Assembly: GCA_964608265.1 (NCBI GenBank)
Contig: CAZSNP010000002.1
Span: 41,387 to 105,386, forward strand
Source of the DNA: an uncultured Anaerolineales bacterium
GTDB lineage: Bacteria; Chloroflexota; Anaerolineae; Anaerolineales; UBA6663
Direction of reading: 5' to 3'
Length of the DNA: 64,000 bases
Below, in pieces: positions 10,005 through 61,676 of this stretch. A program made the translations under genes and the position numbers. Below the pieces are notes generated by a model. The model did not search any database. It had not been told where the DNA came from and saw only the letters and a list, made by a program, of their open reading frames with translations. Position 1 is the stretch's first letter; each line of letters begins with the position of its first letter.

Positions 10005-10397
10005 ATGGCAACGATAAAGGACTATCGCGAGTTGCGGGTGTATCAAGTGGCGTTTGAAGCTGCCATCGAGGTATATGAATTGACGAAGACGTTTCCCATT
10101 GAAGAACGCTACAGCCTGACCGATCAAATCCGGCGGGCATCACGTTCTGTGTGCGCCAACATTGCCGAAGCCTGGCGCAAGCGGCGCTATCCGCAGCATT
10201 TCGTCAGCAAGCTCAGCGACGCCGACGCCGAAGCGGCTGAAACAATCGTCTGGCTCGACTTTGCCTTGCGTTTCAACTTCCTTTCGCCCGAACGGCATCA
10301 GGAATTGCAGGGCCGCTACAACCAAATCTGTGCTCAACTCACAGTCATGATGTCGAGCCCTGGGCAGTGGGCCTATAAATCATCCTCACGTTCATAA
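10005..10397 (+). CDS. four-helix-bundle protein (23S rRNA intervening-sequence protein / Avd family, PF05635-like)
   Basis: MATIKDYRELRVYQVAFEAAIEVYELTKTFP.EERYSLTDQIRRASRSVCANIAEAW.. is the family signature. GGAGGGAG SD lies 5 nt upstream of ATG 10005. Confidence 0.85.
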   Translation: MATIKDYRELRVYQVAFEAAIEVYELTKTFPIEERYSLTDQIRRASRSVCANIAEAWRKRRYPQHFVSKLSDADAEAAETIVWLDFALRFNFLSPERHQELQGRYNQICAQLTVMMSSPGQWAYKSSSRS

Positions 10398-11489: not shown

Positions 11490-12284
11490 ATGCACCTGCG
11501 CATCGAGCACACCACCACCTTTACCTACGATCACCCCATCAGCGAGGCGTATACCGAGATGCGGTTGAAGCCGCTGGACGGGGATGGGCAGCGGTGCTCG
11601 CACTTCACCCTGCTGACCGAGCCGCGCGACGAAGTGCTGCAATACACCGACCGCTTCGGCAACGACGTGCGCCACTTCGACGTCATCCAGCCGCACACCA
11701 AACTGATGGTGGCGGCGGTGAGCGAAGTGCAAACGCCCGACGCCTTCGCGCCCGACGGGGCGCCGCTCTCCCCGCTCGATGAGTTCGACTACTTGATGGC
11801 GACGACGTACGCCCCGCTCAGCGGCGATCTGGCGCAGTTCGCCGCCGCGCGCGCGGTCAGCGGCGACCCGGGGGCCACGGCGCTCGCCCTGACGCACGCG
11901 CTGTTCGACTCGCTCAAATACGAAAAGGGCGCGACCGACGTGTACACGACGGCCGACAAAGCCCTCGCGCTTGGGCGCGGCGTGTGCCAGGATTTCGCCC
12001 ACATCCTGCTGGCCGCGTGCCGCAGCCAGGGCATCCCGGCGCGCTACGTCAGCGGCTATCTGTACAACAACGGCCGCACCGCCGCCTCGCACGCCTGGGT
12101 GGATGTGTACGTGGCCGGGCGCGGCTGGCTGTCGCTCGACCCGACGCATAACACGCTGCAAACAAACCATTACGTGCGCGTGGCCGTTGGCCGCGACTAC
12201 GCCGACGTGCCCCCCACGCGCGGCATCTTCAAGGGCAATGCCAAAGAGAAGATGGAGGTGGAAGTGAAAGTGACGGCAACGTGA
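11490..12284 (+). CDS. transglutaminase-like cysteine protease family protein (COG1305)
   Basis: [28 protein letters not shown] (Bact_transglu_N-like) plus the core [29 protein letters not shown]...HAWVDVY...GWLSLDPTH (Cys-His-Asp). Confidence 0.85.
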
Positions 12285-12286
12285 AG

Positions 12287-12471
12287 CAGGGCATGTGCAA
12301 AGTCCAAGCGATGCCGACGTTTCGCCCTCACCCCTGCCCTCTCCCGCTGGGAGAGGGAGTGATTCGCACCAGTGGAACGCCACTCCCAATCGTCAGGGCC
12401 GGCTCCCCTTCTCCCAGCGGGAGAAGGGGCCGGGGGATGAGGGCGGACTCGGCGACTTTGCACACGCCCTG
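12287..12471. mobile_element. MITE-like element, copy 1 (18-bp TIRs, two internal hairpins)
   Basis: Left end CAGGGCATGTGCAAAGTC (12287-12304) versus the reverse complement of the right end GACTTTGCACACGCCCTG (12454-12471): 17/18. Inner inverted pair CGCCCTCACCCC / GGGGATGAGGGCG. Hairpins CCCTCTCCC-GCTG-GGGAGAGGG and CCCCTTCTCCC-AGC-GGGAGAAGGGG. Confidence 0.65.
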
Positions 12472-12504: not shown

Positions 12505-15045
12505 ATGTACGCCGAGATCGCCGTCAACGTCGCCCACCTGAGCGGCACGTTTCACTACGAAATCCCCCGCGACCTTGAAAAACAGTTGCGGGCCGGCCAC
12601 CTCGTCACCGTGCCGTTCAGCGGGCGCGAGGCGCAGGGCGTCGTCGTCGCGTTGAGCGATGAGTCGCCCGTCGACGGCGTTCCCAGGGAACGCGTCAAGC
12701 CCGTCATCGGTCTCGTTGATCCCGAGCCGGCCCTCACCCGCGCGCAGCTCGACCTCGCCTATTGGATCGCGCACACCTACCTCGTCTCACTCATCGACGC
12801 GCTCACCCTCATGCTGCCGCCCGGCCTGAGCAAACAGGCCGAGGTGGTGTATTCGCTCGTGGACGGCGAGCTTGCAGCGGACGCTCCAGCGACGACCGCT
12901 AAAGCGGCCACTACCAACAATCTCCAGTCATCGCTTCTCAATCTTCTGAAAGAACGCGGCGCCCTTCGTTCGCGCCAGCTCGACCGGGCGTTTCCGAAGC
13001 AGAAGTGGCGGCCGGTCGCCGAAGCGCTCGTGCGGCGCGGCGTGCTGAGCAAGCACAGCCGCTTGGAGCCGCCCTCGGTGCATGCCAAGCAAGTGAAGAC
13101 CGCGCGCCTCATCGCCAGCGTGCCGCAGCTCGAGGCGGTGCGCGGCTCGCTCTCGCGCTCGGCAGCCAAGGCCAAACGTTTGCAAGCCGCGCTCGATTTT
13201 CTGGGCCGTGAGGCTAAGCCGGTGGAGGTGCCGTGGGTGTACGCGGCCTCGGGCTGCGACCTGCAGGACCTGCGCGACCTGGCCGAGATGGAACTCGTTG
13301 ACCTGGGCGAGGCCGAGGTGTGGCGCGACCCGCTGGCCGGCAAGGAGTTCGTGCCCGACAGCGCCCCGCCGCTCACCGACGATCAACAGCGTGTGTGGGA
13401 CGCCGTGCGCTCCTCCCTCCACTCCCCCCCTTCCACAATTTTGCTGCACGGCGTCACCGGCTCGGGCAAGACCGAAATTTATCTGCGGGCGCTGGAGGAA
13501 GCGCTGAAGCAGGGCAAGCGCGCGCTGGTGCTTGTGCCCGAGATCGCGCTCACGCCGCAGACGGTGCGCCGGTTCGCCGCGCGCTTCCCCGGCCGCGTGG
13601 CGGTGTGGCACAGTGAACTCGGCGAGGGCGAGCGTTACGACACCTGGCGGCGCGCGCGTTCGGGATTGGTGGACATCGTCATCGGCGCGCGCAGCGCGTT
13701 GTTCGCGCCGCTGCCCGACCTCGGCGTGATCGTGCTGGACGAGGAGCACGACGAGGCCTACAAGCAGGATCCGCCGCAGAGCGTGCCCTATCACGCGCGC
13801 GAGGCGGCGATTGAGTATGCCGGGCAGCTCGGCGCGGTGTGCCTGCTCGGCTCGGCCACGCCGGATGTGGTGACGTTCCATCGCGCGCGGCGCGGCGCGT
13901 ACACCTTGCTCGAACTGCCGCTGCGCATCATGGGCCACGCGCGCAAACTCGAGGAGCAGGCCGAACGGTTCCACGTCGCCTCGCGCTATCACTCGCTCAG
14001 CGCCGAGACGCAGACGATCGATCTGCCGCCGGTCGAGATCGCCGACATGCGACACGAGTTGCGCATGGGCAACACCACGATGTTCAGCCGCAAGCTGCGC
14101 GACTATCTCGAAAACGCCATCGCGCAGAACGAGCAGGCCATCCTGTTCCTCAACCGGCGCGGCACTTCGACGTTTGTGTTCTGTCGCGATTGCGGCGAGG
14201 CGCTCAAGTGCCCGAACTGCGACACCACCCTCACCCATCACGGCTCGGCGCAACAACTGACCTGCCACCACTGCGGCCATCGCCAGCCGCAGCCGGAGCG
14301 TTGCCCGAACTGCCACAGCCCGCGCGTGAAGTTTTTTGGATTGGGCACCGAGAAGCTGGCCGAGGCGGTGACGGCGGAGTTCCCCGGCGCGACGGTGCTG
14401 CGCTGGGATCGCGATGCCACGCGGACGAAGGGCGCGCACGAACTCATCCTGCGCACGTTCAGCACGCAACAGGCCAACGTCCTCGTCGGCACGCAGATGA
14501 TTGCCAAGGGCCTCGATCTGCCGCTGGTGACGCTGGTGGGCGTGATCTCGGCGGATGTCGGGCTCGGGCTGCCCGATTACCGCGCCACCGAGCGGACGTT
14601 TCAATTGCTGACGCAGGTGGCCGGGCGCGCGGGCCGCGGCCTGCTGGGTGGCCGGGTGGTGTTGCAGACCTATCAGCCGGAGCATTACGTGATTCAGGCT
14701 GCGTCACAGCACGATTACGCCGGCTTCTACCAGCGCGAGATCGCCTACCGCAAAGACCTCGGCCTGCCGCCCTTCCGGCGCGTGATGCGGCTGCTCTATC
14801 GCCACGCCGATTACTCGCGGGCCGAGGCCGAGGCCAACGTCGTGGCGGCGCAACTGCGGCTGCGGGTGAAGGATGGCAAGCTGCTGAACACCGACGTCGC
14901 CGGCCCGGCCCCGGCCTTTTTCGGCAAGCTGGCCGGTGAGCATCGCTGGCAGATTATCGTGCGCGGCCCCGACCCGGCCGCCCTGGCGCGCGGGCTGCAA
15001 CTCAAAGGCTGGGTGGTGGATGTGGATCCGTTGAGCACGCTGTAA
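12505..15045 (+). CDS. priA: primosomal replication restart helicase PriA
   Basis: MYAEIAVNVA..GTFHYEIP start. Walker A GVTGSGKTE, DEEHD box, Cys-rich zinc region CRDCGEALKCPNCDTTLTHH...LTCHHCGH...CPNC. The track's upstream 70 codons lie in the MITE and are rejected. Confidence 0.9.
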   Translation: MYAEIAVNVAHLSGTFHYEIPRDLEKQLRAGHLVTVPFSGREAQGVVVALSDESPVDGVPRERVKPVIGLVDPEPALTRAQLDLAYWIAHTYLVSLIDALTLMLPPGLSKQAEVVYSLVDGELAADAPATTAKAATTNNLQSSLLNLLKERGALRSRQLDRAFPKQKWRPVAEALVRRGVLSKHSRLEPPSVHAKQVKTARLIASVPQLEAVRGSLSRSAAKAKRLQAALDFLGREAKPVEVPWVYAASGCDLQDLRDLAEMELVDLGEAEVWRDPLAGKEFVPDSAPPLTDDQQRVWDAVRSSLHSPPSTILLHGVTGSGKTEIYLRALEEALKQGKRALVLVPEIALTPQTVRRFAARFPGRVAVWHSELGEGERYDTWRRARSGLVDIVIGARSALFAPLPDLGVIVLDEEHDEAYKQDPPQSVPYHAREAAIEYAGQLGAVCLLGSATPDVVTFHRARRGAYTLLELPLRIMGHARKLEEQAERFHVASRYHSLSAETQTIDLPPVEIADMRHELRMGNTTMFSRKLRDYLENAIAQNEQAILFLNRRGTSTFVFCRDCGEALKCPNCDTTLTHHGSAQQLTCHHCGHRQPQPERCPNCHSPRVKFFGLGTEKLAEAVTAEFPGATVLRWDRDATRTKGAHELILRTFSTQQANVLVGTQMIAKGLDLPLVTLVGVISADVGLGLPDYRATERTFQLLTQVAGRAGRGLLGGRVVLQTYQPEHYVIQAASQHDYAGFYQREIAYRKDLGLPPFRRVMRLLYRHADYSRAEAEANVVAAQLRLRVKDGKLLNTDVAGPAPAFFGKLAGEHRWQIIVRGPDPAALARGLQLKGWVVDVDPLSTL

Positions 15046-32464: not shown

Positions 32465-32565
32465 CGCCCTCACCCCCCGCCCCTCTCCCGCTGGGAGAGG
32501 GGGGTGGGCTTGGTCATTTCAGGGTCAACTCCCTCTCCCGGAGGGAGAGGGTTGGGGTGAGGGCG
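32465..32565. mobile_element. MITE-like element, copy 2 (core only; outer TIRs degraded)
   Basis: CGCCCTCACCCC ... CCCCTCTCCC-GCTG-GGGAGAGGGG ... CCCTCTCCC-GGA-GGGAGAGGG ... GGGGTGAGGGCG. Confidence 0.55.
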
Positions 32566-56131: not shown

Positions 56132-57241
56132 TCAGCTGGTCAGCGCCTTTCGATAGCTGGCCACAGTGGCCGCCGCCGTATCGGCCCAGGTGAAGCGCGC
56201 CGCGTGCGCCGGGCCGCGCGCCGCCAGCGCGCCGTCGTCGTTCAGCGCGCGGCGCAGCGCCTCGGTCAACGCCGGCACATCGCCCGGCGGCACACACACC
56301 GCCGCCTGCCCGGCGGCCTCGGGCAGCGACGAAGCCGTCGTCGTTACGACGGGCCGGCCACAGGCCAGGGCTTCCAGCACAGGCATTCCAAAACCTTCGA
56401 AGGTCGAGGGATAGGCGAAGACGGCGGCTGCGTTATACCACATCGGCAACTCCTCGGCGGGCACAAACCCGGGAAAATGCACAACGTTCGTCAGCCCGGA
56501 TCGTTCCACCTGCCGGAAGAGGTCAGCGTAGAACCAACCCTTCGCGCCCGCGAGCACCAGGTGGAGCTTGGCGGCCTGGAGCTTGTCGAAGGCGCTGATG
56601 AGGCAGGCGAGGTTCTTGCGCGGCTCGAGGGTGCCGAGGTAAAGGATGAAGCGCTCGGGCAGGCCGGCGCGCGCGCGAAAGGCCTCCACCTCGGCGGGCG
56701 GCAGCGGGCGGAAGCGCGCGTCCACGCCGGGCCGCGCCACATCCACGCGGTCATCCATCACACCCAATAGCTGCACCACATCCCGCTTCGTGCTCTCCGA
56801 AATCGCGAGCACCCGGCGCGCGCGGCGGCACGAGTGCGCGGTGAGGGCCGACAGGTACAGCCGTTGCGCTGTCGGAAAGTTGCGCGGGAACAATCGAAAC
56901 GAGAGGTCGTACACGGTGACGACGGCGGGCACGGGGTTGAGCAGCGGCGAGGCGAAGGCCAGCGAGTGCAGCAGGTCGGGCCGGAGGCGCGCGAGGGCCA
57001 GCGGCTGCGCGAGTTGCTCCCACAGGATGCGGGCCAGCGGGCGCTGCGTCGGCCAGCGGCTGCGCTCGATCCGCGCGCGCGCCATCACCGGTTGGCCTGC
57101 GCCGACGAACACCGTGAAGTCAAACTCCGGCCCGGCCTCGGGCAGAGACTGGAGCGTGTTGAAAATGTATTGATGGATGCCCGCGCTGCGATACGACGCG
57201 CCACCGTACAGCAAGTGCGCGTTGAGCGCGAGGTGCGGCAT
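56132..57241 (-). CDS. glycosyltransferase family 4 (GT-B)
   Basis: MPHLALNAHLL..G...RSAGIHQY start. C-terminal LGTLEPRKN...PS.FEGFGMPVLEALACG.PVV (E-x7-E region). The track's N-terminal 90 codons were rejected. Confidence 0.8.
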   Translation of the reverse strand: MPHLALNAHLLYGGASYRSAGIHQYIFNTLQSLPEAGPEFDFTVFVGAGQPVMARARIERSRWPTQRPLARILWEQLAQPLALARLRPDLLHSLAFASPLLNPVPAVVTVYDLSFRLFPRNFPTAQRLYLSALTAHSCRRARRVLAISESTKRDVVQLLGVMDDRVDVARPGVDARFRPLPPAEVEAFRARAGLPERFILYLGTLEPRKNLACLISAFDKLQAAKLHLVLAGAKGWFYADLFRQVERSGLTNVVHFPGFVPAEELPMWYNAAAVFAYPSTFEGFGMPVLEALACGRPVVTTTASSLPEAAGQAAVCVPPGDVPALTEALRRALNDDGALAARGPAHAARFTWADTAAATVASYRKALTS

Positions 57242-57419
57242 ACGCAGGATTATAGCGGAGCGAAAAAAGCCGCGCCTCCTTAATGGGATGCGCGGCTGAA
57301 GCTCGGTCGGTGACGACGGGGTTACCGATTGTGCGGCACCGTCACCGCCCGCGAGCCGGATGACGGCACGGGCGACGCGGATAGGGCCAACGATACCGTG
57401 ATTGTGAATGACACAACCT

Positions 57420-57868
57420 TCAGGCTGCGCCGTGGGGCCGGGCGTGATCGAGGTAGCCCGACTGGCCCTGAAAGACGACGAAGTTCGCGTCCGCGCCGCG
57501 GAAGGCGTCAATCAGCTTGGTGTAGCCGGCCAGGGCGAGGGCAAAGTCCAGTCCACGCCAGATTTTCGCCCTCACCCCGTCCCTCTCCCGCTGGGAGAGG
57601 GAGTGGAGCGTGTCATTGGAATCCCGCTCCAAATCATGAGTGCCGACTCCCCCTTCTCCCGCTGGGAGAGTCGCTGCGCTTACGGGGCTGGGGGATAAGG
57701 GCGAGCGCGGTGACTTTGCACACACCCTGTGTGGCCGGCGTTCCTGATCGCCGTGATCGTGTCTTCGAGAGCGTATGCGTTGAGTTCGCCGCTGATGAAT
57801 CTGTGTCGAAGCGCGTTCACAGAGGATACGCCGGTTGTCGTGAGGCTGTATGCGAAGGCGGGTGACGG
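57420..57868 (-). pseudogene. C-terminal remnant of an extracellular endonuclease/exonuclease/phosphatase (ExeM/NucH-like) gene, split by a MITE
   Basis: Reverse-strand translations: 57850-57730 gives ..FISGELNAYALEDTITAIRNAGHT; 57530-57423 gives AGYTKLIDAFRGADANFVVFQGQSGYLDHA... The two halves are 209 nt apart and out of frame; removing 209 nt restores the frame. Confidence 0.45.
57531..57729. mobile_element. MITE-like element, copy 3, with 10-bp flanking direct repeat
   Basis: TIRs CAGGGCGAGGGCAAAGTC (57531-57548) / GACTTTGCACACACCCTG (57712-57729), 15/18. Flanks TGTAGCCGGC (57521-57530) and TGTGGCCGGC (57730-57739), 9/10. Confidence 0.65.
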
Positions 57869-57942
57869 TCACGGGCAACTCGTTGCTGCCCGTGACCGTC
57901 GCTGTGAAACAAGTGGGGCTGGCCCTGAAGGCGGCCAGCCCC
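57863..57942 (-). terminator. two tandem strong hairpins downstream of the NPP/5'-nucleotidase gene
   Basis: GGGGCTGGCC-8nt-GGCCAGCCCC (57915-57942), followed on the minus strand by ACTTGTTTC. GACGGTCACGGGCA-9nt-TGCCCGTGACCGTC (57863-57899). Confidence 0.65.
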
Positions 57943-57968: not shown

Positions 57969-60900
57969 TTACTGTCGGACGATGCGACCCTGCACGGGCG
58001 GCGCCGTCACCGGCGAGTTCGCTGCTACGTAATCGATGGAGATTTCGAGCAGGCCATCACCGGGCTGCTGCACGTTCGTGCCGCCGGCCAGGGCGGTGTA
58101 ACCATCGCCGCCGGTGAACATGAAGTCGTTGGTCACCAGCCGGACGTTGGTCGTGTCCGTGATTTCTGTTTCCGGCCCGCCGATGCCGCTCGGCGTCAGC
58201 CACATACCGGTGATCTCCGGCGTGGTGCCGTTGCAGCGGAAGGTGAAGCGCATCCCCGAGACCTGTGGGAAGCGCCCGGTGGCGACGGCGGTATTGCACA
58301 CGGGCGACACGCCGTTGAGCAACGCCGTGCGCAACTGCGCCCCGGTCAGTGTTTCGATGACGGTGCGGTTGCCGAACGGCAGCACGGCGAACATCTCGCC
58401 CCAGGTGATTTCACCGGGTTGCTCGCCAGCGGAGGGCGGCGCGACCAACAGGTCGGCGCGCAGGCCACCCGAGTTGGTGAGGGCGACCTGCACGCTCGGA
58501 TACTTCAGGCGCATCGCGTCGGCGATGAGGTTGCCCATCGGGGATTCGTTCAGCCGCGTCGGGTCGCGCCGGATGTCGGCGGTCTGGCTGCCGATAACCT
58601 GATTGCGCAACACCGCCGTCTGCGCGTTGGCGTCATCAACGATGGCCTTGACATCGGGCCGCAGGGCCACGCCGAGGTTCTTGGCCACGCGCGTCGCGCC
58701 GCCGGCCCACTCCACATCGCCGCCTTGCACGACGAGCTGGAGCACCGAGAAAGTCGCGCCGGCGTTGACGCCCTCCACCACGAGGATGTCGCCGACGTAC
58801 AGGTTCGACACGCGATGGGTGTGCCCGGCGATGACGGCGTCCACCGTCGTATCCTGTATGGCGTTGGTGATGTCGACAATCGGCCCGGCCCACGCCACGG
58901 GCGCGACACCATCCACGGCGTTCGAGCCGACCGCCGAGCCTTCGTGGATGAGCACGATTTGGATCTGCACGCCCTGATGGCGCAGCCGCTCCGATTCGGC
59001 GCGGATGGTTTCCACCGCCGGCAGGAAGCGCAGCCCGGCGGTCGCGCCCGCCGAGACCAGCTCAGGCGTGTTCTCCAGTTCGATGCCGATGACGCCGATG
59101 GGGTAGTCGCCCCACCAGAAGATGCGGCTGCCCTCGACCCAGTCGGGATTGTGGCCGGTGGCCGCGTCCACGATGTTCGCGCCGAGGAAGGGGAAGTTGG
59201 CGCGGGCCTGATGTTGCAGCAGCCGCGACACACCGTAGTCGAACTCGTGGTTGCCGTACGAGGTGGCGTTCAGCCCCCACGCGTTCTCGACATCAATCGC
59301 CGGCATGTCCTGCAGCAGGCCGGAGTTGGCCGGCGAAGCCCCGACGTTATCGCCGGCGGCGAACAGCAGCGCGTGACCCGTCAATCGGGCGGCCTCTTCG
59401 TCGAACAGCGTGGCCAGTTGCGCCGCGCCGCCGACCGAGACATTGAGGTTGTCCATCCGCATCGTCGTCGGGTCAAGCTGGCCGTGGAAGTCGTTCAGGC
59501 CGAGCATCGGGATGACGTTATCCCACGAGCCGCCCTTGATCACATCCATGTGCACCTGGCCCTGGGCGTGCTGCGGGATGGGGATGCGCATGAGATAGGC
59601 GATCGTCGGGGCGAGGTCGGTCGAGCGGATGCCGTCCACCACCGTGCGCCGGATGGCCGGGCCGCCGGCGAGGAAGGTCGCGCGCAGGTTGATGTTGGCC
59701 TCGAGGTTCTGCACATCCGGCACGTAGCCGTGCTGCCCGAAGAAGGCCGACAGCGCGATCAACGTTCCGGGGGTCGCCGCATCGAATTGATACGGCGGAT
59801 AAGAGAACGCCACCACGTCGCCGGTGCGGGTGGGGTGGGCCATATCGGTGTGATTAAGGCCGTCGTCCGTGTTGGGGATATAGCGCGCCTCGGCCTTGGT
59901 GTAGACGCGGTCAATCACCGTCCACCCCTCCGGCTGGCCGTCGCCCGTCCAGTCGTTCGGATCAGACAGGCCCTGGAATGCGGACTTGATTTGCGCGACG
60001 ACGGTATCGTAATTCGAGGCCACGACCTGCGTGATCGTACTCGGCATCGGGAGCGGGTCGCGCCCGGCGAGGTTGAGGTAAATCTGCACCGTGCCGCCGG
60101 CCCAGCAAGCCTTGGCCTTGCCGATGGTCTCGCCCGTCGCCAGTCGGCAGTTGGAGGTCTGTGGCCGCGACAGCAAACCCAAATCCACCAACACCTTGCT
60201 GGCGTCAATGGCCAGGAACTGCGGCGCGAAGCCGTGATCGGACGACACGAACGTGTTGACGTTGCCCGGCATGAGCGACTGAACGAGCGCCAGCGTCCGA
60301 TCGGCGCCTTGATAAGCGCGGCGCAGGAAGCCTTCGCGCACGGCCACGCGGCCATCGGGCGTGCCGTTGACTTGCACGTCGTCATAGGCCGGGTTGTGGT
60401 CGCCGTTCGGCAAGGTCGGCGAGACCAGCCCGAGGAACTGATGCGAGAACTCATCGGTGACCGGGTAGCCCGCAAGCACCAGATCGGGCCTGTGCTTGTC
60501 GAGGATGTACTCGATCACCGGCCAGTGCCCGGTTTCCCAGTACAGGCCCTGCTCCACATACGTTTCTTCGCTGACGATGCCGGCCTCGAGGACGGCGAAG
60601 TCGGCGGCGGTGGAGGTGGGGAATTCCCTGGCGATGAACTCGCCGAAGTCGGTATAGCCCGGCTCGCCCGGCCACGTCGGCCACGAAGCGTTCGAGCGCG
60701 CCACCGAGGTGTGGAAGAGGCGCACTTCCGAGAGATCGGGCGCGAGCCGTTCCACTTTCACCAGCATGCCGCCGGTCTTGCCGGCCAGCGACCCGCCGAC
60801 GATGGTGACTTTGACGTCGGCCCACTCACCTTCGGCCAGCGTGCCGGCGGCGGCGCTGCCGTCTTTGCTCGGCGAGAAGAGCACATGATCGTAATTGGTC

Positions 60901-61676
60901 GTGCTGTCGTTGGTCGAGTCAAAGATGTAGGCATTCAGGCCATACTTGTCGGTGCCGAAGTCGAGCACCCGCATCCGCATCTCTTTGGCCGGACTGTATG
61001 AGGTCGGCACATTCGTCCAGCCGCTCGCATCGGTCGGCGCAGCGCCGGGGAAGGGTGGCTGGCCCGCGAAGCCAACCGGATGATCGAACTGCAAGCTAAA
61101 GGCCGCGGTGAAGGAGGCGCTATCGAGCGGGCTGATGTAGTTGGTGGCGACGCCGCGCCCGGAGAAGAACCCACGGAAGTCAATCGTCGGGCCGTTGATG
61201 GTGCCGTTGCGGCCGCCGGCCCACTCGATCTGCGCCACCTTCTTGCCGCCGCGTTCGGCGGCCTGGGCCAGCGTCTCGGCCTGCAACACGCCGGCGTCGA
61301 ACGCGGCGGTGCGATTGGTGAACGCTTGGCCATTGATATGGAAGGTGTTATTCGTGGAGCCATGCACACCCGGCCAGGCACCGGTCGCGAGCGTGTACCA
61401 GCCCGCGCCCGTATTGGCGGCGGCCTGGGTCAGCAATCCGTTGCCGCTGGCATACGCGCCGCGTTGCAGCAGCTTCCGCATCGCGGGCAGTGTCCCCTGC
61501 TGGGCATACTGCCGAACGAGGTCTTGCCGCAAACCGTCGGCGGCGAAAAAGATCACGGAGTCGGCTTTGGCGGATTGGCGCGTGTGGGTGGGGGTGGCCG
61601 CGCGCACTGACGGCGCGAAACCGGCGCCCATGGCCAGCACAAGGATGACAAAGAGGTTGAAGAGTCTGTTTTTCAT
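57969..61676 (-). CDS. secreted fusion: nucleotide pyrophosphatase/phosphodiesterase (AlkP superfamily) + calcineurin-like metallophosphoesterase + 5'-nucleotidase C-terminal domain
   Basis: Signal peptide [36 protein letters not shown]...TGAWPGVHG...SSDHGF (NPP). NDFHGQL...GNHEFDYG (5'-NT metallophosphatase). UshA-like C-terminus. Confidence 0.85.

Follow-up and report, generated by a model that had tools for sequence, protein, structure and literature searches.

The window, a stretch of 64,000 nucleotides from an uncultured Anaerolineales bacterium, carries an NPP/5'-nucleotidase gene on its minus strand (ATG start at 61676, stop codon at 57969), followed on the same strand by a GT4 glycosyltransferase gene. 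The 728-bp spacer between these two genes holds two hairpins, several short stretches resembling a secreted nuclease and a 199-bp repeat element enclosed by two nearly identical decamers (Table 1).

Table 1. Features of the 728-bp spacer, in minus-strand order, followed by related elements elsewhere in the window and in other Chloroflexota
Feature	Position	Strand	Length	Remarks
Hairpin 1, intrinsic-terminator-like, of the upstream NPP/5'-nucleotidase gene	57915-57942	-		Kept in L120
Hairpin 2, perfect 16-bp stem	57864-57900	-		Lineage-specific; absent from L120; no repeat elsewhere in the window
Retained 5' end of the nuclease gene	57797-57824	-		GTG at 57820 and MNALRHRF; L120 8969-8996, MKSLRHRI
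Fragment A (ISGELNAYALEDTITAIRNAG[H]T)	57740-57796	-		~residues 831-851 of the L120 protein
TSD copy TGTGGCCGGC	57730-57739			Minus-strand GCCGGCCACA, encodes AGHT; one substitution
MITE, non-autonomous, assigned to the ISAs1 type	57531-57729	.	199 bp	No ORF of its own; long imperfect hairpin
Right TIR GACTTTGCACACACCCTG	57712-57729	+		Matches the family consensus exactly
Left TIR CAGGGCGAGGGCAAAGTC	57531-57548	+		2 mismatches to the family consensus CAGGGYRTGTGCAAAGTC
TSD copy TGTAGCCGGC	57521-57530			Minus-strand GCCGGCTACA, encodes AGYT
Fragment B (AGYTKLIDAFRGADANFVVFQGQSGYLDHA)	57440-57530	-		L120 11588-11673, ~residues 860-889; 77%, E = 6e-12
Inverted nuclease fragment	57341-57430	+		Encodes TVTAREPDDGTGDADRANDTVIVNDTTFRLR; L120 residues 989-1019, L120 11973-12062 reversed
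Last nuclease codons, (A)VTVPHNR and stop	57322-57347	-		Collinear with TVTVPHNQ and stop in L120
Conserved intergenic region	57216-57321	-		GC hairpin and T-run, then promoter-like box CGCTATAATCC, then start of the GT4 glycosyltransferase gene (ATG 57241)
Second full MITE copy	12287-12471	.	185 bp	Consensus TIRs, no TSD
Inverted pair of the MITE internal module, GCCCTCACCCC and CCCTCTCCC-loop-GGGAGAGGG	32466-32564	.		No ISAs1 termini
Autonomous element	L073 2216-3491		1276 bp	Same termini, perfect 10-bp duplication; NF033564, 234 bits
Autonomous element	L024 2470-3757		1288 bp	Same termini, perfect 10-bp duplication; NF033564, 222 bits

RESULTS

A short element with ISAs1-type ends

The initial annotation had delimited the element accurately: its length, the two decamers that abut it on both sides and match at 9 of 10 positions, the peptides that these encode, the 209-nt offset and the in-frame junction were all reproduced, with every coordinate and sequence. 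At the local base composition, two given decamers would match at 9 or more positions with a probability of about 6e-5. On the minus strand the decamers lie in two pieces of open reading frame, one ending in ALAGYTKLIDAFRGADANFVVFQGQSGYLDHARPHGAA and a stop and the other beginning with MNALRHRFISGELNAYALEDTITAIRNAGHT (also written as a piece ending in FISGELNAYALEDTITAIRNAGHT and a piece AGYTKLIDAFRGADANFVVFQGQSGYLDHARPHGAA with its stop). The element and one decamer together measure 199 + 10 = 209 nt (2 mod 3), and their excision in silico brings the two halves into frame. The TIRs are 18 bp long and start with CAGGG, and their complementarity extends to 15 of the 18 positions (CAGGGCGAGGGCAAAGTC against CAGGGTGTGTGCAAAGTC, the right end reverse-complemented). 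Folded as single-stranded DNA, the element forms one long hairpin with an MFE of -48.7 kcal/mol (z = -3.6).

To place the element in a family, we scanned a species-representative genome collection for the terminus GACTTTGCACAYRCCCTG and then paired left with right ends; the figures given here refer to the matches listed. These matches were overwhelmingly from Chloroflexota, spanning Oscillochloris, Roseiflexus, Herpetosiphonaceae, Anaerolineae and Dehalococcoidia, and pairing of the ends yielded at least 67 elements outside the window, most of them 39 to 500 bp long and three of about 1.24 to 1.29 kb. Among the 67 elements listed, perfect 10-bp direct repeats abut the ends in 28, perfect 9-bp repeats in 3 more, and flanks matching at 8 or 9 of 10 positions are found in a further 7. 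Random pairs of left and right flanks almost never reached 8 of 10, and the few that did include an element paired with itself. A clear duplication is absent in about 45% of the paired ends, a share that includes some mis-paired ends and some 9-bp cases offset by one base. The initial annotation's reading of a MITE with a 10-bp target-site duplication (TSD) is thus backed by repeats of the same length across elements with the same termini.

Two of the larger elements, on contigs L073 and L024, each encode a protein some 390 aa long, which scores far above the cutoff of 70 bits against the NCBIfam model NF033564, "ISAs1 family transposase", and also matches PF13808 and PF01609. The ISAs1 family is defined by IRs of 14 to 22 bp beginning with CAGGG and by DRs of 10 bp (PMC11946415), and we assigned the 199-bp MITE to this type because its termini and the 10-bp duplications agree with that definition. 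Judged by its sequence, 57531-57729 is an ISAs1-type MITE: its TIRs have the length and the start of the family, its TSD measures 10 bp, and its termini are common to transposase-encoding elements. It is also non-autonomous, being shorter than 600 bp and devoid of a transposase ORF, with 2 full copies in the 64 kb and dozens in other Chloroflexota. A tblastn search of the 64-kb window with an ISAs1 transposase returned no transposase gene of this family, and the MITE is presumably mobilised in trans by an ISAs1 transposase. The sequence that it has in common with the autonomous elements is limited to the terminal 18 to 19 bp, so that descent from a particular IS is not established, and the interiors of elements with these termini vary widely between genomes.

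Other copies and the internal hairpin module

The other full copy in the window (12287-12471) nearly fills the gap between a transglutaminase-like gene (stop at 12284) and priA (ATG at 12506). In every strain contig found, this copy is either present or the contig breaks inside it, and no polymorphism for it was found among these strain contigs. The initial annotation had proposed to look for 10-bp duplications at other copies, and the outcome was divided: they flank 28 of the 67 family elements listed, but not this only other full copy in the window.

The interior of the MITE contains a GC-rich hairpin module, GCCCTCACCCC and CCCTCTCCC-loop-GGGAGAGGG, which occurs 5 times in the window, as opposed to 0 times in shuffled sequences, and recurs inside MITE copies from several lineages. 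The inverted pair of this module at 32466-32564 is either a MITE that has lost its termini or a REP-like repeat in its own right, which MITEs have captured. A metagenome scan for the internal module of the subfamily returned 7 stretches, all from one sample and mostly fragments at contig ends, which are uninformative on duplications.

A different account of the element would be that it is a REP/BIME-like or otherwise structured repeat spread without DDE transposition (for example, by a RAYT-type or recombinational route), with the match between the decamers due to coincidence or to a local duplication. Such an account would suit an interior made of hairpin modules, the pair at 32466-32564 without ISAs1 termini, the modules fused in tandem at the contig ends of L125, L129 and L130, and the lack of a duplication at the 12-kb copy. 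We nevertheless consider it very unlikely, given that transposase-encoding ISAs1 elements have matching 18-bp termini, that the listed members with 10-bp duplications include 9 of the 17 module-carrying copies outside the window (those with at least 4 hairpin-motif matches), and that the target sequence is single-copy in the related contig L120 (see below).

Tandem arrangements were seen in two settings. In a Dehalococcoidia MAG (OZ253476.1, L014 4988-5890), three elements of about 250 to 310 bp follow one another; their left ends are degenerate and their "flanks" identical, which suggests that a related MITE of the ISAs1 type forms a tandem array here rather than having inserted independently each time. 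In metagenome Ga0114938 (L125 1-260, L129 1-270 and L130 1-245), MITE interiors are fused head to tail at contig ends, with a degenerate terminus, GAGCTTTGCGCTCGCCCT, continuing directly into the next unit; these fusions may reflect tandem amplification by recombination through CTCGCCCT (terminus by subterminal region) or an assembly artefact. A separate observation concerns a 130-aa gene at about 10005-10397 of the window (L131 1016-1408), which lies between CP_ATPgrasp and Alpha-E genes and has Pfam matches to 23S_rRNA_IVP / bAvd. Four-helix-bundle proteins of the bAvd type accompany diversity-generating retroelements.

A relative with an intact nuclease gene at the same place

The peptide obtained by joining the two halves matched the NCBIfam model NF033681, ExeM_NucH_DNase, with E = 1.1e-12 at model positions 436 to 488 of 546; its score of 47.7 bits lies below the curated whole-domain cutoff of 300, as expected for a pseudogene. 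Pfam returned no match for this peptide, and a word-indexed protein search with its 63 aa returned only a strain variant (P0001). The NPP/5'-nucleotidase protein proved more informative, as its homologue P0003, 82% identical, is encoded on contig L120 in the gene order GT, NPP, a 1057-aa Big_5 + Exo_endo_phos gene, GT and Bac_transf. Read from its probable GTG start, the L120 nuclease has 1068 aa and scores 560.8 bits against NF033681, compared with the cutoff of 300. This intact ExeM/NucH gene, which an earlier suggestion to look for relatives with a nuclease downstream of NPP/5'-nucleotidase had anticipated, occupies exactly the place of the 728-bp spacer. On both sides the two loci are collinear, with a nucleotide identity of about 80%, and a stretch of 632 bp in the window corresponds to 3277 bp in L120. 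Two other contigs, L121 and L122, with about 75% NPP identity, do not keep the downstream arrangement and are of no help in dating the events.

The window remnant thus is a positional orthologue of a bona fide ExeM/NucH gene, with the same gene order and with piecewise DNA homology that extends from its start region as far as its stop codon, and the identification of an ExeM/NucH-type nuclease split by the element holds, on the grounds of both the NF033681 match and the synteny with L120. Like nucleases of this family (EEP fold, PF03372), it carries the block of motifs GDLNAY...ED(P)I and F.GQ.GYLDH, and its intact orthologue adjoins NPP/5'-nucleotidase and has an N-terminal signal-like sequence and a Big_5 domain. 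In contrast to them, it amounts to about 9% of the gene length and is frameshifted, and the aspartate conserved in GD(L/F)N is replaced by glutamate, so that the catalytic motif GDLN reads GELN. The element interrupts its open reading frame, some 91% of the gene is gone and one block is inverted; the remnant cannot encode a functional nuclease. The motif block had been taken for the C terminus of the protein; it corresponds instead to about residues 831 to 889 of the L120 nuclease in the 1057-aa numbering (about 842 to 900 from the GTG start of the 1068-aa form).

Surviving pieces and breakpoints

Alignment with L120 places the nuclease pieces of the spacer one by one. The retained 5' end matches the L120 start region at 86% over 28 bp (E = 8e-4). 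Codon 8 then runs directly into fragment A with the frame preserved, the roughly 2.5 kb that separate them in L120 (8997 to about 11497) having been deleted. Beyond the element and fragment B, about 300 bp are lost (L120 11674-11972), followed by a 90-bp block in inverted orientation, which is 80% identical to L120 at the DNA level (E = 2e-18) and is found on the opposite strand by tblastn (E = 3e-11). Another 91 bp or so (L120 12063-12153) are missing after this block, and the tail of the pseudogene, together with the intergenic region, then aligns with L120 12154-12282 at 81% identity. In L120, short inverted repeats border the inverted region, CGGTCACC at about 11969 and CGGTGAC at about 12153. 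One inversion between them, followed by one deletion across its upstream junction, would be the most economical history.

These alignments redraw the extent of what is left. Instead of some 85 C-terminal codons, as first proposed, the survivors are the start with 8 codons, a catalytic-domain part of about 50 codons, which makes up the nuclease homology around the element, an inverted piece of 30 codons and the last 8 codons with the stop. The peptide tail RPHGAA and stop that follows LDHA is not nuclease sequence; it arises where reading continues, in antisense, into the inverted block. The tandem hairpins had been held responsible for a truncation at the 5' side of the gene, a view that fails because what was deleted is an internal stretch of about 2.5 kb beyond codon 8; hairpin 1 is the NPP terminator, and hairpin 2 lies upstream of the retained start codon. 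Hairpin 2, which separates the NPP terminator from the relic start of the nuclease gene, has an RNA MFE of -34 kcal/mol. An origin of hairpin 2 from the nuclease "VTSNE" region by inverted duplication was considered and rejected, the similarity being too short, and an Rfam search of the spacer gave nothing near any gathering score. Metagenome gene calls of 70 aa (L001 7775-7987 and homologues) and 51 aa (P0001, L119 1425-1580) at this locus are spurious ORFs in which MITE sequence forms a chimera with nuclease fragment B.

The pieces also bear on whether the nuclease-like sequence arose in place or is a chance similarity or an imported fragment, for example, one carried in with the element. 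Each homologous piece is short, Pfam is blank on the joined peptide and the protein word search found only the strain variant, all of which would be compatible with such an origin. However, the NCBIfam match has an E value of 1e-12, and five pieces, including the start region and the stop, match the L120 gene between the same flanking genes and follow the L120 order except for the inverted block, which leaves chance or import scarcely credible next to a pseudogene that decayed in situ.

Target site and strain variants

At the orthologous site, L120 has GATGACTACA once and no element (...GACTACA). The L120 site differs from the window target at 3 of 10 positions, and a 24-nt indel lies just upstream. 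Because L120 reads GACTACA here, GCCGGCTACA, the copy encoding Y, is favoured as ancestral: it is probably the original target, as far as the sequences tell, with GCCGGCCACA the mutated proximal copy. In strain L119 the distal copy has changed as well (GCCGGCTGCA).

In six JGI assemblies made from different samples (L001-L006), the spacer and its element recur at 99.9% identity; they are also seen in L126, a contig that breaks off within the element at 57646, and in strains L127 and L119, which are 96.5 to 97.4% identical. All nine independent metagenome contigs that cover the site or extend into it thus carry the insertion, with the TSD differing at 1 or 2 positions, and a search of metagenomes for exact matches to the empty allele GCTTGGTGYRGCCGGCGTTCCTGA returned 0. 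Whereas the initial annotation described an insertion caught in the act, its presence in every strain variant found and the incipient divergence of the TSD indicate that it is fixed and not recent. That the inversion, the deletions and the element are a repeat-driven artefact of metagenome assembly deserves hardly any credence: assemblers do struggle with this repeat, as contigs end inside MITE copies (L126, and Logan contigs L134 and L135 at 12349), but the whole spacer recurs in the six assemblies, the diverged strains L119 and L127 reproduce it with scattered substitutions, and the inversion junction does not fall at a repeat copy.

DISCUSSION

In this study, we followed up a repeat insertion in an uncultured Chloroflexota lineage and found it in what is, with high probability, an ExeM/NucH pseudogene decayed in situ, in which an ISAs1-type MITE insertion, deletions and an inversion have together produced the 728-bp spacer. 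This reading builds on the anatomy of the element, its membership in a family, the in situ orthology with L120, the breakpoints of the deletions and the inversion, and the fixation of the insertion in the population. The events can be outlined as follows, their order being tentative. A secreted ExeM/NucH nuclease gene of about 3.2 kb would originally have lain between the NPP/5'-nucleotidase and GT4 glycosyltransferase genes. At some point, the 199-bp MITE entered the region coding for the catalytic domain, its 18-bp CAGGG... termini presumably being recognised in trans by an ISAs1 DDE transposase, and repair of the staggered cut would have created the 10-bp duplication (GCCGGCTACA on the coding strand). 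An independent internal deletion removed about 2.5 kb, from codon 9 to about codon 830, a segment near the 3' end was inverted, probably between the short inverted repeats CGGTCACC and CGGTGAC, and about 300 bp and about 91 bp were lost besides. Both TSD copies are intact, which argues that the deletions are not transposase-mediated adjacent deletions. What the neighbouring genes need has stayed intact, namely the terminator of the upstream gene, that of the nuclease gene itself and the promoter region of the downstream gene, and selection on these neighbours may explain why such pieces were spared.

Trans-mobilised MITEs, DDE transposases, staggered 10-bp cuts and pseudogene decay are textbook biology, and the locus is a well-explained case of ordinary gene decay rather than a new kind of system. 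The element resembles ISAs1-family ISs (ISAs1 of Aeromonas salmonicida and the H-repeat/ISEc1 type) in its 18-bp CAGGG TIRs, 10-bp TSD and termini of the same type, but it differs from them in its size of 199 bp without a transposase and in an interior of GC-rich hairpin modules that is unrelated to IS interiors. Its hosts differ as well, since the ISAs1 family has mostly been described in Proteobacteria, Cyanobacteria and Actinobacteria, whereas the MITEs reported here reside in Chloroflexota. With the Correia elements of Neisseria and the MaeMITEs of Microcystis it has in common that all are small, TIR-bounded, hairpin-forming multicopy elements located in or beside genes and flanked by a TSD; the differences lie in the parent transposase family and the length of the duplication. 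In the part of the literature to which we had access, which was limited, we found no description of ISAs1-derived MITEs in Chloroflexota. We speculate, giving the idea somewhat less than an even chance, that the CAGGGYRTGTGCAAAGTC termini mark a phylum-wide, undescribed Chloroflexota superfamily of ISAs1-mobilised MITEs, in which only the 18-bp ends are conserved, the interiors are freely exchanged and a standalone hairpin repeat (GCCCTCACCCC and CCCTCTCCC-loop-GGGAGAGGG) has been captured repeatedly. If this were true, ISAs1 transposases would be a general vehicle for the spread of REP-like hairpins in these genomes.

Nothing at the locus overturns current understanding. What it offers is a fully mapped decay of a large accessory gene in an uncultured Chloroflexota lineage, brought about by a MITE, a large internal deletion, an inversion bounded by microhomology and additional losses. 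The assignment of the repeat family in the window to ISAs1 makes it easier to annotate genomes of Chloroflexota, in which repeats of this sort interrupt assemblies and give rise to spurious small ORFs. For the organism itself, a secreted nuclease that a relative has kept beside NPP/5'-nucleotidase has been lost, which may change how it scavenges extracellular DNA or nucleotides.
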